A stretch of DNA of 64,000 nt from positions 1,278,805-1,342,804 of the forward strand of contig CP075367.1 in assembly GCA_019454165.1 (NCBI GenBank), in the 5' to 3' direction. Of this stretch, positions 34,515-38,688 are shown piece by piece. A program made the position numbers and the translations under genes. This stretch comes from Anaerolineales bacterium. GTDB taxonomy: Bacteria > Chloroflexota > Anaerolineae > Anaerolineales > UBA11579. Numbering within the stretch: the first letter of the stretch is position 1; the number at the start of each line of letters is the position of its first letter. The notes under the pieces were generated by a model. The model was not told where the DNA came from. It saw only the letters and a list, made by a program, of their open reading frames with translations, and made no database searches.

Positions 34515-35324
34515 CTACACGTACACCAGGCAATCCGCCAATACCGGCGCGGTTTCGAACTGATTCCAGCGCAGGTCCAGCTTGCGCAGCTTATTGAGCG
34601 CATGGAGACTGGCGGGCAGCTGGCTGAGCTGATTGTTGCGTAAGTCCAAATAGTAGAGTTCGGTCAGTTTTCCAATGGTTTCCGGCAGGCTGGTCAGCAG
34701 ATTGCTGCGGGCGTGCAGCTCGCGCAGGTGGGCCAGCTTGCCGATCGAACCGGGTAGTTGGCGGATGCGATTATTGTAGATACGCAGCTCCTGGAGCGCG
34801 GCCAGCTCGCAAACGGCCTCTGGCAATTCGCCAAATTGGTTGTCGGTCATGCTGAGATAGGCGAGGCTGCGCATGTGCCTAAGTTCGTCAGGCACGCGAT
34901 CCAGTTGGTTGTCGCTAATGTACAGGAACTCCAGCTTGTGCAGCTGACCGAGTTCGGCCGGCAGGCTGCTGAGTTGGTTGTGGGCAATGTCCAGCACTTC
35001 GAGCTTGCTTAGCTGGCCTAGCTCGGCCGGCAGGCTGCGGGCGGGTGTGCCGAAGAAGAACAGCTGGCGCAGCTCCCGCAGCTGGCCCACCGCGGCGGGC
35101 AGCTGGTCGAGCGGGTCTTCGCCCAACGAAAGCGTCTCCAAGTCGCCAAGCTCCCACAGCTCGGCCGGCAGTTGCTGCCAGCCGCAGCCGCGCAGCGAAA
35201 GGGCGGTGATGCGCTCGCCGTCCTGGCAGTAGGCGATCTTGTGCGTGTGCAGCTGGCTGCGCTCCACGCGCGGGATTGGCTGGCTGAGCTTCTGCTCTAA
35301 CTGCTGCAATATGTTTGCTGGCAT
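34515..35324 (-). CDS. Leucine-rich repeat (LRR) protein, about nine 23-residue repeats, with no signal peptide or effector domain
   Basis: 269 aa with repeats of the form LPxxLGQLxxLExLxLxxNQLxx (for example LPAELGQLSKLEVLDIAHNQLSS, LPAELGQLHKLEFLYISDNQLDR, LPETIGKLTELYYLDLRNNQLSQ). Confidence 0.85.
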   Translation of the reverse strand: MPANILQQLEQKLSQPIPRVERSQLHTHKIAYCQDGERITALSLRGCGWQQLPAELWELGDLETLSLGEDPLDQLPAAVGQLRELRQLFFFGTPARSLPAELGQLSKLEVLDIAHNQLSSLPAELGQLHKLEFLYISDNQLDRVPDELRHMRSLAYLSMTDNQFGELPEAVCELAALQELRIYNNRIRQLPGSIGKLAHLRELHARSNLLTSLPETIGKLTELYYLDLRNNQLSQLPASLHALNKLRKLDLRWNQFETAPVLADCLVYV

Positions 35325-35343
35325 GTTTTATACGTATTAGTAG

Positions 35344-35766
35344 TTAGTCTGCCTGGAGTGAGTTCCAGGCTGCGTGGTACTTTTGCAGTTTTTCAAATGA
35401 GCCAGGCGTGATCTCTTTAAGACGTAGGATGTTGGCGTTGTCCTCAAGATCAGCCAGTTTGACCCTGCGAGCAAGCGGCACTTGCTTGATAGCGGCTATG
35501 TAGTCCTCGTAGCTCTGCTCATCCAGGTGGGTCAGGGCTTCCAGCGCTTCAAGGATCGGCTCGGCAAAGCCCAGCTTCTTCAGATCAGCCAGCGTGGTGT
35601 CTGAATCCTCGACTACATCATGCAGAACGGCTACGATCATCTCTTCAGCCGTTTGCATACGCAGCATGAGACGCAGCGGATGCAGGATATAGGGCGCGCC
35701 CGCCTTATCCACCTGCTGCCGGTGCGCGGCGAGCGCCACTCCAATCGCTGTGTTCAGGTCAGCCAT
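35344..35766 (-). CDS. Small HD-domain hydrolase, RelA/SpoT-type (p)ppGpp-hydrolase-like
   Basis: 140 aa from the ATG at 35766, with AHRQQVDKAGAPYILHPLRL and LHDVVEDS motifs. It overlaps the DUF1684 stop by 8 nt. The track ORF extends spuriously to 35901. Confidence 0.7.
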   Translation of the reverse strand: MADLNTAIGVALAAHRQQVDKAGAPYILHPLRLMLRMQTAEEMIVAVLHDVVEDSDTTLADLKKLGFAEPILEALEALTHLDEQSYEDYIAAIKQVPLARRVKLADLEDNANILRLKEITPGSFEKLQKYHAAWNSLQAD

Positions 35767-36604
35767 GCGAACTCGTGTAGCGTTCGCCCACCTCGATCGC
35801 CACGGGCAGCACATTGCTGGCCTGCGGCAGCGGGCAGGTGGCGAATTCGGTGAAGGCGCACGGCGGGCTGTAGAGCTTGTTAAGATCCAGCACCACTTCA
35901 TCGCCGGTGGGCGTCTCGCTGGTCAGGAAGCGGCCGGCGCCGTAGCTGCCTTTGCCCGCGCTGGCGTCTTTGACCAGCAGATAGTATGTGCCATCCTCCA
36001 GCAGCTCAGCTTGCGGCGCGCAGTGCACGCCGCCGTATTCGAAGTGCAGCACGGCGTGCATTTCAGTCTCCTGCTGGATGCCAACGATGTCGTCGCGCAG
36101 CACGCGCACGGGCGACTCGTAGCGCTCGATGCGTGCCGTCACGCGGGCGGCCGGATCCGGCGGGAACCAGACGCGGCCGGTGGCCGTTTGGCGTTCCGGC
36201 CGCTGCGGGTCCCAGATGCGGATCGCGTAGCGATCACCGCGCCGCAGCACCAAAATGCGCACATCCTCCCAGAACACGAAGGTTGGCTGTTCGCTGTGAT
36301 CGTCGTGCAACCGGGTCTCGCCGCTGACCGGGGCTTCGCCCGCGGCCGGGTTGGCGCCCGCGCTCAGGGCGGCGTCAGGCGTAGGATGCAAGCTGACCTG
36401 GCCGTTGGCCAGGTGCAGGCTGCCCAGGCCGCCCGGGGCGCGGGCGGGCAGCAGTACGCGGCTGCCGGGCGCGCTGCCGAGGCTGTTCTCGCCCTCGTCC
36501 AGCCAGAACAGGCCGGTCAGCGTCAGCCAGCTGTAGGGAGCGCGCAAACGCTCGCCCATGTCTGCGCGCCAGGCGTTTAGTTGTGCCAGATAGTCAACTG
36601 ACAT
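35759..36604 (-). CDS. DUF1684 domain protein
   Basis: 281 aa. GSYGAGRFL...LDLNKLYSPPCAFTEFATCPLPQASNVLPVAIEVGE matches the conserved DUF1684 C-terminal pattern as I recall it. The start overlaps the upstream stop (TAATG). Confidence 0.75.
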   Translation of the reverse strand: MSVDYLAQLNAWRADMGERLRAPYSWLTLTGLFWLDEGENSLGSAPGSRVLLPARAPGGLGSLHLANGQVSLHPTPDAALSAGANPAAGEAPVSGETRLHDDHSEQPTFVFWEDVRILVLRRGDRYAIRIWDPQRPERQTATGRVWFPPDPAARVTARIERYESPVRVLRDDIVGIQQETEMHAVLHFEYGGVHCAPQAELLEDGTYYLLVKDASAGKGSYGAGRFLTSETPTGDEVVLDLNKLYSPPCAFTEFATCPLPQASNVLPVAIEVGERYTSSHG

Positions 36605-37974
36605 TAAACGTACTCGAACTGGGCCGTGAAGTGGCGCAGCAACTCCGGAGCATACGTCATCTTCATGCCGCGGATCTTGCCGGCATCCGCTTTGATCTCG
36701 CCGATCACCTCAGCCACATAATCGAAGTGGCTCTGGGTATATGTTCGGCGCGGGATCGCCAGGCGCACCAACTCCAGCGGCGGAAACTTCCATTGGCCGT
36801 CCACCAGCTGGCCGAAGGCGATCGTGCCCATCTCCACGGCGCGGATGCCGCCGTACTGGTACAGCGCCACCGAGAGCGCCTGGCCCGGCAGCTGCTCGCG
36901 GCTCAGGTGCGGCAGCAGGCCGGCCGCATCCAGATAGATGGCGTGCCCGCCGGTCGGCTCGATCAGTGGCATGCCTGCCTGGCGGATGCGGTCGGCGGCG
37001 TAGGCGGTTTGCGCCAGGCGGTAGGCCAGGTAGTCCTCCTGCAAGCCGTCGCGCAGGCCCACGGCCAGCGCGTCCAGATCGCGGCCGGCCAGGCCGCCGT
37101 AGGTGGGGAAGCCCTCGCGCAGGATCAGCTCGGCCCGTACGCGCTCGAACAGCTTGTCGTCGTTCGTGGCCAGGAAGCCGCCGATGTTAACCATGCCGTC
37201 CTTCTTGGCGCTCATCGTGGCGCCGTCAGCCAGGGCAAAGATCTCGCGGGCGATCTCCAGCGGAGTCTTGTCGGCATACCCCGGCTCGCGCAGCTTGATG
37301 AAATAGGCATTCTCGGCATAGCGGCAGGCGTCAATAAAGAACGGGATGTTGTAGCTGCGGTAGATCTCCGAAACGGCGCGCAGATTGGCCAGCGAGACCG
37401 GCTGGCCGCCCCCGGCGTTGTTGGTGATCGTCATCATGCCGAACGGGATGTTGGCTGGGCCTTTCTCCTCGATCCAGGCCTTGAGGGCGTCAGTGTCCAT
37501 ATCGCCCTTGAAATCCACGACCGTTTGCGGCTCATAGGCCACTTGCTTGACCAGATTGGTGGGTACGCCGCCGCGCGCCAATATGTTGCCTTCGGTGGTG
37601 TCGAAATGCATATTCGAGGGCACGAACTGGCCGGCCTTCAACAGTACGGCCGCGAGGATGTTCTCGGCTGCCCGCCCCTGGTGGGTTGGCACAAAATGCT
37701 TGAAGCCAAAGATATCCTGCATGACTTCTTTGAGGCGGTAGAACGACCGCGCCCCGGCGTAAGATTCATCCCCTGACATCATGGCCGACCATTGCGCCTG
37801 GCTCATGGCGCCAGTGCCCGAATCGGTCATCAGGTCAATGTACACATCCTGGGCACGCAGGCCAAATACGTTGTAGCCCGCGGCTTTCAGCGCTTTCTCA
37901 CGCTCCGCCTGGTTGATGAGCTGGATCGGCTCGACGACCTTGATGCGGAACGGTTCCGGCAGGTACTTGGGCAT
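36604..37974 (-). CDS. tnaA: Tryptophanase / tyrosine phenol-lyase family beta-eliminating lyase (tryptophanase-like)
   Basis: 456 aa from the ATG at 37974 (AAGGAG RBS): MPKYLPEPFRIKVVEP... The PLP lysine context is SAKKDGMVNIGG, and the C-terminus is LLRHFTAQFEYV. HFDTT (Asp rather than the Thr of tyrosine phenol-lyase, as I recall) favours tryptophanase. The track ORF extends spuriously to 38559. Confidence 0.85.
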   Translation of the reverse strand: MPKYLPEPFRIKVVEPIQLINQAEREKALKAAGYNVFGLRAQDVYIDLMTDSGTGAMSQAQWSAMMSGDESYAGARSFYRLKEVMQDIFGFKHFVPTHQGRAAENILAAVLLKAGQFVPSNMHFDTTEGNILARGGVPTNLVKQVAYEPQTVVDFKGDMDTDALKAWIEEKGPANIPFGMMTITNNAGGGQPVSLANLRAVSEIYRSYNIPFFIDACRYAENAYFIKLREPGYADKTPLEIAREIFALADGATMSAKKDGMVNIGGFLATNDDKLFERVRAELILREGFPTYGGLAGRDLDALAVGLRDGLQEDYLAYRLAQTAYAADRIRQAGMPLIEPTGGHAIYLDAAGLLPHLSREQLPGQALSVALYQYGGIRAVEMGTIAFGQLVDGQWKFPPLELVRLAIPRRTYTQSHFDYVAEVIGEIKADAGKIRGMKMTYAPELLRHFTAQFEYV

Positions 37975-37996: not shown

Positions 37997-38038
37997 TTGC
38001 GCACGGCCGCGCGTATGGCTGCCGTGCGCAAAGTATAA
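37997..38038. promoter_or_regulatory. Divergent tnaA-like/MBL control region: 11-bp inverted repeat abutting a TATAAT box
   Basis: TTGCGCACGGC (37997-38007), 13 nt, GCCGTGCGCAA (38021-38031), then TATAAT (38033-38038). The MBL ATG lies 12 nt after the -10 box, so its mRNA is nearly leaderless. Confidence 0.5.
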
Positions 38039-38049
38039 TCCCGCTCACC

Positions 38050-38688
38050 ATGCCGCTCGAGATCGTCAAGATGACCCTGGGTCCGGCCCAGACCAACTGC
38101 TACATCGTGGCCGAGCAAGGCAATTCGGACGCGGTCGTGATCGACCCGTCGTGGGACGGCCATCTGATTCTGGAGCAGATGCACGCGTGCAACTGGCGCA
38201 CGGCCGCCATCTGGCTGACCCACGCCCACTGGGATCACTTTGGCGGCGCGGCTGCCGTGGCCGACGGCAGCGTCACGCCGCCACAAGTGGCCCTGCACCC
38301 AGATGACTACGTACTGTGGCGCGCCGGCGGCGGGGCGCGCAACTACGGCCTGACCTTTGACCCCGGCCCCGAGCCAACGATCGACCTGGCCGGCGGGCAG
38401 ACCCTGTATGTCGGCAAGACCGCCCTGGAAGTGCGCTTTGCGCCCGGTCACTCGCGCGGCAGCGTCATGTTCTATGCGTCCAGCGAGCGGCTCATGTTCT
38501 GCGGCGACGTCATCTTTCAGATGAGCATCGGCCGCACCGATCTGCCCGGCGCCGACCACCAGACCCTGATCGATAGCATTACTCGCGAGGTACTAAGCCT
38601 GCCGGATGATGTGGTGCTGCTGCCCGGGCACGGGCCGGAGACCACGGTAGGGCAGGAACGCCAATTCAATCCATTTTTGCAAGACTGA
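38050..38688 (+). CDS. MBL-fold metallo-hydrolase (glyoxalase II-like)
   Basis: 212 aa from the ATG at 38050, with THAHWDHFGG (the HxHxDH motif) and later GHSRGS and LPGHG. The track ORF begins spuriously at 37792. Confidence 0.85.
   Translation: MPLEIVKMTLGPAQTNCYIVAEQGNSDAVVIDPSWDGHLILEQMHACNWRTAAIWLTHAHWDHFGGAAAVADGSVTPPQVALHPDDYVLWRAGGGARNYGLTFDPGPEPTIDLAGGQTLYVGKTALEVRFAPGHSRGSVMFYASSERLMFCGDVIFQMSIGRTDLPGADHQTLIDSITREVLSLPDDVVLLPGHGPETTVGQERQFNPFLQD

Follow-up and report, generated by a model that had tools for sequence, protein, structure and literature searches.

We analyzed four consecutive minus-strand genes, encoding a tnaA-like β-eliminating lyase, a long-form DUF1684 protein, a small HD-domain protein of the Aph1 type, and a leucine-rich repeat (LRR) protein, in a 64,000-nucleotide stretch of DNA (the window) that is part of the 2.24-Mb single-contig genome of an uncultured Anaerolineales (Chloroflexota) lineage. 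The four-gene combination is neither a known system nor a conserved one. The unit is likely to be a lineage-specific patchwork that grew piecemeal, as genes were inserted into a variable site 3' of tnaA, rather than one pathway. The coordinates of the four genes were taken from the open reading frame (ORF) listing and the translations, and the junctions were read straight off the sequence.

36604-37974, minus strand: tnaA-like β-eliminating lyase gene, 456 amino acids, first gene of the unit
35759-36604, minus strand: long-form DUF1684 gene, 281 amino acids
35344-35766, minus strand: HD (Aph1-type) gene, 140 amino acids
34515-35324, minus strand: LRR gene, 269 amino acids

Gene order and its distribution among relatives

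The four minus-strand genes are packed as the original prediction had described them, the junctions being a TAATG overlap, one of 8 nt, and a spacer of 19 nt, and both Pfam and NCBIfam agree with the domain identities (lyase, DUF1684, HD, and LRR) that it had assigned. At the tnaA/DUF1684 junction (GTTTAATGTCA), one base is common to the tnaA stop codon TAA and the DUF1684 ATG. The HD start codon lies within the 3' end of DUF1684 (CATGGCTGACC), the overlapping stretch being ATGGCTGA, and the gap from the HD stop to the LRR ATG reads CTACTAATACGTATAAAAC. Start/stop overlaps are frequent in this compact genome, and the neighboring ArsR and SRPBCC genes overlap too, so the tight spacing is unremarkable by itself.

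Forty relatives were searched with three of the four proteins; 20 regions from 19 genomes of the genus were fetched, and the window genes were mapped onto them; the counts below refer to 21 genus loci. The order rny / (membrane protein) / DinB / metallo-β-lactamase (MBL)-fold / tnaA / DUF1684 is syntenic throughout the genus and is also present in a more distant JGI contig. A mobile-island origin of the whole block was ruled out by this conserved chromosomal flanking synteny. At the locus, tnaA and the long DUF1684 gene share a strand in 21 of 21 cases and are directly adjacent in 17; another gene stands between them in the remaining four, encoding a mechanosensitive-channel transmembrane (TM)-helix protein (508 amino acids) in three genomes and a 384-residue orphan in one.

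What lies 3' of this pair changes from genome to genome. The Aph1 gene follows DUF1684 in six of the 21 loci, all in one subclade, and an LRR gene follows DUF1684 or Aph1 in nine, with an N-terminal remnant in a tenth. Four combinations occur in the genus (Aph1 with LRR, Aph1 only, LRR only, and neither), and the full four-gene order is found at three loci, those of the window genome (G000), G018, and G002. In other members, the position 3' of DUF1684 holds a GmrSD-type endonuclease gene or an AAA kinase-like gene. Because differing genes occupy the same position in relatives, the site 3' of tnaA/DUF1684 is a variable spot.

On the tnaA tree, the Aph1-bearing loci fall within one clade of eight (100/100 support), two members of which have no Aph1 gene. 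This confinement is consistent with the gene having entered once between DUF1684 and LRR and later been lost. Only Aph1 deviates in composition, with a GC content at third codon positions (GC3) of 0.65 versus 0.81-0.88 for the neighbor genes, and its identity, at least 75% within the lineage, falls sharply to no more than 61% beyond it. The nearest outside relatives with names belong to Acidobacteriota (Pyrinomonadaceae and Blastocatellia) and Caldilineaceae. The lower GC3 and the drop in identity are together consistent with horizontal acquisition of this gene.

Several side observations concern the same loci. Four repeats of the "mechanosensitive channel conserved TM helix" type (PF05552) are present in the ~505-residue proteins encoded at 4495-6021 of L013, 4151-5674 of L021, and 4915-6429 of L028; the carriers, G012, G009, and G007, are not mutual closest relatives on the tnaA tree. 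GmrSD/DUF262-type restriction endonuclease genes lie 3' of DUF1684 or LRR in two relatives (L013 7849-9552 and L021 6517-8058). In G009, the LRR N-terminal remnant (L021 6640-6855) sits at the beginning of the ORF with the weak GmrSD_N match.

Outside the genus, relatives at the family and order level keep rny / MBL-fold / tnaA. Those that possess a long DUF1684 gene have it on another contig than tnaA, or have no tnaA. The partner on the 3' side of tnaA differs between these lineages: it is a Sir2 deacylase gene overlapping the tnaA stop, a codirectional S9 prolyl-oligopeptidase gene, or a convergent M20 peptidase gene (L123 3438-4202, L125 2695-4701, and L124 3517-6324, respectively).

For a wider view, a one-genome-per-species scan gave 596 DUF1684 loci, of which the best 80 (L043-L122) were examined; they span many phyla, three belonging to this genus and 77 to other lineages. 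Within 4 kb, tnaA or Aph1 occurred at only the three loci of this genus among these best 80 of 596, and LRR at none of the 80. Three further distant DUF1684 contexts contained unrelated genes, and four distant Aph1 contexts were likewise unrelated (sulfatases, an ornithine/diaminopimelate decarboxylase, an ABC transporter, and flagellar genes). In those unrelated operons, the Aph1 gene is often closely packed between its neighbors, in line with the published survey of the family (PMC10083569). Searched against PADLOC-DB v2 with an E threshold of 0.01, none of the four proteins had a match, and on this basis a defense-system identity was ruled out.

These distributions bear directly on the proposal, made in the original prediction, that the four genes are one novel module, either coupling an indole signal to alarmone turnover or acting in a defense-like manner with the LRR protein as sensor and the enzymes as effectors. 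Such a module would fit the tight packing and the single upstream promoter region in this genome, the presence of a GmrSD-type defense gene at the same spot in relatives, and the link of Aph enzymes to toxin immunity (PMC10083569). The proposal largely fails against the gene order, which is confined to three close genomes, as well as against the LRR protein, which has no effector or NTPase domain, and the lyase gene, which belongs to the conserved core of the order and not to its accessory genes. Conservation of the gene neighborhood had been named in advance as a check, and it revealed no linkage of the four genes at the DUF1684 and Aph1 loci examined outside the genus and an independent turnover of Aph1 and LRR inside it, an outcome that largely corresponds to the refutation foreseen in the original prediction. 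We therefore regard a four-gene module as highly unlikely, and nothing points to the four products acting on one another.

A narrower association deserves more weight. The tnaA and DUF1684 genes, possibly together with LRR, might form a true functional pair or triad in the genus, with Aph1 as an unrelated insertion; the target bound or modified by the DUF1684 protein could, for example, be tryptophanase itself, the substrate of this enzyme, or its reactive products (indole and aminoacrylate). The constant pairing at all genus loci, with junctions of 0-12 nt in several of them, speaks for this idea, as do the joint absence of tnaA and the long DUF1684 gene from G004 (an 88% complete genome) and the LRR gene or remnant found directly after DUF1684 in 10 loci. 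Against it, the entire rny / DinB / MBL-fold / tnaA / DUF1684 stretch is syntenic in the genus, so that the linkage may reflect inheritance alone; other genes separate the two in four genomes; in relatives of the same family or order, one of the two genes (tnaA or long DUF1684) is missing, or both are present but unlinked; and tnaA is near none of the 77 non-genus DUF1684 loci. The linkage is most simply explained as inherited synteny, and we judge a functional pair or triad rather unlikely.

Three points nevertheless weigh against a piecemeal patchwork. The tnaA and DUF1684 genes stay linked down to ~42% DUF1684 identity and abut or overlap in several genomes, approximately half of the genus keeps LRR directly after DUF1684, and the scenario of gains and losses is drawn from a single-gene (tnaA) tree.

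The HD protein as a member of the Aph1 family

Adenosine 3'-pyrophosphohydrolase 1 (Aph1) of Bacteroides caccae (PDB entry 7SMG; Ahmad et al. 2023, PMC10083569) defines a family with a compact HD fold and the signature residues D24, R96, D116, R119, K133, and Y134. According to the same study, D24 and R119 jointly exclude ppGpp, and the pair has to be mutated for ppGpp to be admitted; (p)ppGpp small alarmone hydrolases have two extra helices relative to Aph1; and the more than 2,000 homologues lie in diverse genomic contexts, with 12 of 12 assayed enzymes hydrolyzing ppApp.

The HD protein of the window scored 22.9 bits against HD_4, which is under the cut-off, and matched the TIGR00691 hydrolase region at E 6e-15. 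In a phmmer comparison with the PDB, it aligned with 7SMG at E 3.2e-30 without gaps, query residues 4-137 matching residues 8-141 of the chain, whereas the next-best matches (Rel, SpoT, and Mesh1) reached E 7e-10 or weaker, and most of them ended before the C-terminal region. The 7SMG match continues through this region, Y90-E143 of Aph1, by which the authors of that study told Aph proteins apart from (p)ppGpp hydrolases. The AlphaFold2 model (predicted local distance difference test score, pLDDT, 94.4) superimposed on 7SMG in Foldseek with a template modeling (TM) score of 0.95 and a root mean square deviation of 1.2 Å, compared with TM scores of ~0.77 for Mesh1 and small alarmone hydrolases, which are longer targets.

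The catalytic residues H29, H49-D50, E53-D54, D106, E108-D109, and N110 correspond to H33, H53-D54, E57-D58, D110, E112-D113, and N114 of Aph1. Four of the six signature positions are identical (D20, R115, K129, and Y130, equivalent to D24, R119, K133, and Y134), and the conserved ones include the specificity pair D24/R119. The family is widely distributed, and relatives of the protein number at least 7,960 at E 1e-8 or better. On the strength of sequence and modeled fold, the HD protein is a clear Aph1-family member and a predicted monofunctional (p)ppApp 3'-pyrophosphohydrolase. The earlier assignment to small alarmone hydrolases of the (p)ppGpp type thus survives at the level of the HD superfamily, whereas its generic (p)ppGpp part gives way to the Aph1 (p)ppApp family, as indicated by the 7SMG match, the fold, and D24/R119.

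Counting against this assignment are the two remaining signature positions, where R96 is replaced by A92 and D116 by N112. Across 21 family members, Ala at the R96 position was seen in the genus copies and one other only, and the D116 position alternates between Asn and Asp. These replacements, the membership of the RelA/SpoT HD superfamily, and the modest ppGpp activity of 2 of the 12 assayed Aph homologues (PMC10083569) would all be compatible with a general (p)ppGpp small alarmone hydrolase that backs up the hydrolase domain of Rel and is not specific for (p)ppApp. The intact D24/R119 pair argues otherwise, as do the 140-residue fold that matches 7SMG and is ~40 residues shorter than the matched (p)ppGpp small alarmone hydrolases, and the family-wide alternation of Asn and Asp at D116. 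We therefore consider a general (p)ppGpp hydrolase quite improbable.

A search of the genome for a cognate toxin that synthesizes (p)ppApp found the RelA_SpoT synthetase domain (PF04607) only in the 766-residue long Rel. Because there is no second RelA/SpoT-type synthetase that could be the cognate toxin, Aph1 most likely has an orphan detoxifying, immunity-like role, protecting the cell against (p)ppApp-synthesizing toxins from competitors or phages. Alternatively, it could clear adventitious (p)ppApp that the Rel enzyme of the cell itself makes as a by-product. A PF04607 search may miss toxins with a divergent (p)ppApp synthetase, which counts against the orphan label and makes it provisional.

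One genus genome (G020) has a second-type Aph-like gene on contig C99 (L032 124-537), whose product is 39% identical and which adjoins YceI, DUF998, and Mfd genes. The Glu-Asp of its EDN motif is replaced (DIAGN), and the protein may therefore be inactive.

The lyase, the DUF1684 and LRR proteins, and the upstream region

The lyase scored 248.7 bits against Beta_elim_lyase (PF01212) and passed the NF009709 tryptophanase subfamily model (667 bits, cut-off 285). Both equivalog cut-offs were missed, that of tryptophanase (TIGR02617, 532.6 versus 825.8) and that of tyrosine phenol-lyase (TIGR02618, 538.9 versus 720.7), and because only the subfamily model is passed, the protein is a somewhat divergent member of its family by sequence. 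It is 47% identical to E. coli TnaA (b3708, from MG1655), and its pyridoxal 5'-phosphate (PLP) lysine, K258 in the sequence SAKKD, is aligned with E. coli K270.

Alignments to E. coli TnaA and the Citrobacter tyrosine phenol-lyase were inspected at Asp137/Ile396/His463 versus Thr124/Arg381/Phe448, which we take to be the positions that set the substrate specificity of tryptophanase versus tyrosine phenol-lyase. The window protein has D125 at the position of E. coli D137 (T124 in tyrosine phenol-lyase), M382, which is hydrophobic and not Arg, at that of I396 (R381), and H448 at that of H463 (F448). With three specificity residues of the tryptophanase type and the PLP lysine in place, we read the protein as a putative tryptophanase (TnaA, EC 4.1.99.1). 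The original prediction had left the product as indole or phenol; its PLP β-eliminating lyase is retained, and the phenol side falls away with the specificity residues. Tyrosine phenol-lyases are the top PDB matches (the best being the F448H mutant 2YCP), and the whole-sequence score is slightly higher to them (494 versus 450 bits), but this identity was ruled out by the same three residues.

The DUF1684 protein matched PF07920 with 109.7 bits and, among PDB entries, 2LNU at E 1.3e-16 and 2LOK/4DLH/4FJ4 at E 1.8e-12. In its AlphaFold2 model (pLDDT 92.9), the long form consists of an N-terminal β-sandwich and a C-terminal DUF1684 barrel, and Foldseek matched the C-terminal half with 4FJ4/4DLH. 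Weaker Foldseek matches included FHA-domain β-sandwiches (E 0.02-0.1; target-normalized TM scores 0.5-0.66), which we tentatively attribute to the N-terminal half (residues ~25-130, outside the Pfam model). Thirty-two homologues all preserve a Cys249...Cys257-Pro motif. Relatives number ~6,400 at E 1e-10 or better and are spread across many phyla; one listed paper mentions DUF1684 in passing, and no function is reported for the domain.

Clustering of the neighbors of the 77 non-genus DUF1684 loci revealed no dominant partner, the top clusters being DUF1684 itself and GC-rich shadow frames. The commonest real neighbor was an ABC ATPase of ~547 residues (13 of the 77 loci), possibly of the ECF type as judged from its sequence. 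A separate cluster, present at 5 of these loci, comprised a membrane protein that looks by eye like an ECF S-component. Outside the window, the same genome as that of the window has another DUF1684 paralogue, of the short form (G000:C1:1432939-1433385; open frame 195 amino acids). It is 32% identical to the C-terminal half of the long form and is present in nearly all genus members.

The LRR protein (LRR_14, 126 bits; LRR_8, 104 bits) is a bare array of approximately ten 23-residue repeats in which Pfam found no other domain, including any effector or NTPase domain, and in which no signal peptide was seen by eye. A homologue search was uninformative: it listed generic SHOC2/LRRC-type relatives of at most 42% identity from chlamydiae, eukaryotes, and others, and it missed the genus copies as well. 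The LRR and DUF1684 genes are ordinary members of their families.

Signals for expression of the unit were sought within and around it. A clear Shine-Dalgarno sequence (AAGGAG, 7 nt upstream) precedes tnaA but none of the other three genes, and this restriction of a strong ribosome-binding site to the first gene is consistent with translational coupling of the next two. A consensus scan placed no promoter-like site within the four genes (two sites were found versus 1.5 expected, both outside), and terminator-like sites in the same kind of scan were not enriched over shuffled sequence (4 found versus 4.1 expected). The unit is bordered upstream by the divergent MBL-fold gene (plus strand, start at 38050) and downstream by a convergent lipoprotein-like ORF, with its end (34513) two bases away from that of the LRR gene. 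Judged from these features of the sequence, the four genes are probably one co-transcribed unit in this genome, and translational coupling along with co-transcription is plausible.

Two further features lie upstream of tnaA.

38029-38044, no strand: GCGGGATTATACTTTG motif, 16 nt, in the tnaA/MBL-fold divergent intergenic region
37998-38030, minus strand: hairpin in the presumed tnaA 5' leader (RNA fold), directly upstream of the ribosome-binding site

The ATTATACT core of the 16-nt motif is kept in 15 of 18 aligned genus loci, 40-65 nt upstream of the tnaA ATG, and is missing in G010, G001, and G005. The motif reads TATACT toward tnaA and TATAAT toward the MBL-fold gene and probably represents overlapping -10 elements for the two divergent genes. 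The MBL-fold ATG is just 10 nt from the TATAAT, so the mRNA of that gene may be leaderless. The hairpin is stable, with a folding energy of -23.6 kcal/mol (z = -3.67 versus shuffles). An Rfam search provided no family for it, and the idea of a T-box, a riboswitch, or another known RNA leader ahead of tnaA was dismissed, as the permissive threshold returned chance microRNA and small-RNA matches only. Comparable leader hairpins of differing sequence appear possible, by eye, in most members of the tnaA subclade.

Probable assembly of the unit and comparison with known systems

Taken as a lineage-specific patchwork, the unit would have the following history. The tnaA gene would encode a vertically inherited tryptophanase, converting tryptophan to indole, pyruvate, and ammonium, in the rny / MBL-fold / tnaA setting conserved across the order. 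A long-form DUF1684 gene would have been added 3' of it in the genus ancestor and stayed there since, and the gene for a generic LRR scaffold would have come after DUF1684 early in the genus, to be lost repeatedly. A single insertion at the base of one subclade would have placed the Aph1-type gene between DUF1684 and LRR, and two members of that subclade would have lost it again. Transcription would start from the GCGGGATTATACTTTG motif and proceed through the leader hairpin into tnaA, DUF1684, Aph1, and LRR. The start/stop overlaps suggest that the tnaA promoter serves the inserted genes too, each being translationally coupled to the gene before it. The Aph1 product would convert (p)ppApp to ADP/ATP and pyrophosphate.

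A more speculative possibility is that tryptophanase has a dedicated partner in the long-form DUF1684 protein, assisted by the LRR protein as adaptor, which would control indole production, for instance by binding to tryptophanase or by trapping the reactive compounds that it makes, and that the presence of Aph1 on the same transcript ties (p)ppApp clearance to tryptophan catabolism in the subclade. We hold this to be unlikely; if true, the DUF1684-tryptophanase partnership would be the first functional context for DUF1684.

The main gain under the patchwork reading is one of annotation, as it places a predicted (p)ppApp hydrolase of the Aph1 family in Chloroflexota, a phylum not named in the study that described the family (PMC10083569). 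The gene lies inside a tryptophanase operon and is probably expressed from there, which agrees with the diverse non-phage contexts of aph genes reported in the same work. The locus is also a clean case of operon growth via insertion at one variable spot. Its wider interest concerns the function of DUF1684, given the spread of the domain across many phyla and its stable partnership with tnaA at the level of the genus.

Compared with the tnaCAB operon of enterobacteria (E. coli), the likeness lies in a PLP β-eliminating lyase with the equivalents of Asp137, His463, and Lys270. The E. coli operon includes the tnaC leader peptide and the tnaB permease, neither of which is present in the window unit, where the lyase gene is instead followed by DUF1684, Aph1, and LRR. 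Halobacterium VNG_0733H (2LOK/4DLH/4FJ4) and Haloarcula rrnAC0354 (2LNU), structural-genomics structures without an assigned function, have the DUF1684 barrel in common with the C-terminal 140 residues of the window protein (Foldseek E ~1e-11, 30-34% identity). Unlike them, the window protein has an additional N-terminal half of ~130 residues.

With the small alarmone hydrolases (Mesh1, PaSAH, and CgSAH/RelH), the HD protein shares the HD superfamily and the metal-dependent 3'-pyrophosphohydrolase chemistry expected of it. Those enzymes are ~40 residues longer, have basic residues where Aph1 has D24, and match the window protein at phmmer E values of 1e-7 to 1e-2, against 3e-30 for Aph1. The closest counterpart is Aph1 of B. 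caccae: both proteins are compact (~140 amino acids), are 41-43% identical over their full length, and have no synthetase domain. Unlike Aph1, the window HD gene is not beside a MuF/Apk2 toxin gene or a Tis1 immunity gene and is not in a prophage; it lies within a tryptophanase operon, and its product differs from the B. caccae enzyme by the changes of R96 to Ala and D116 to Asn.

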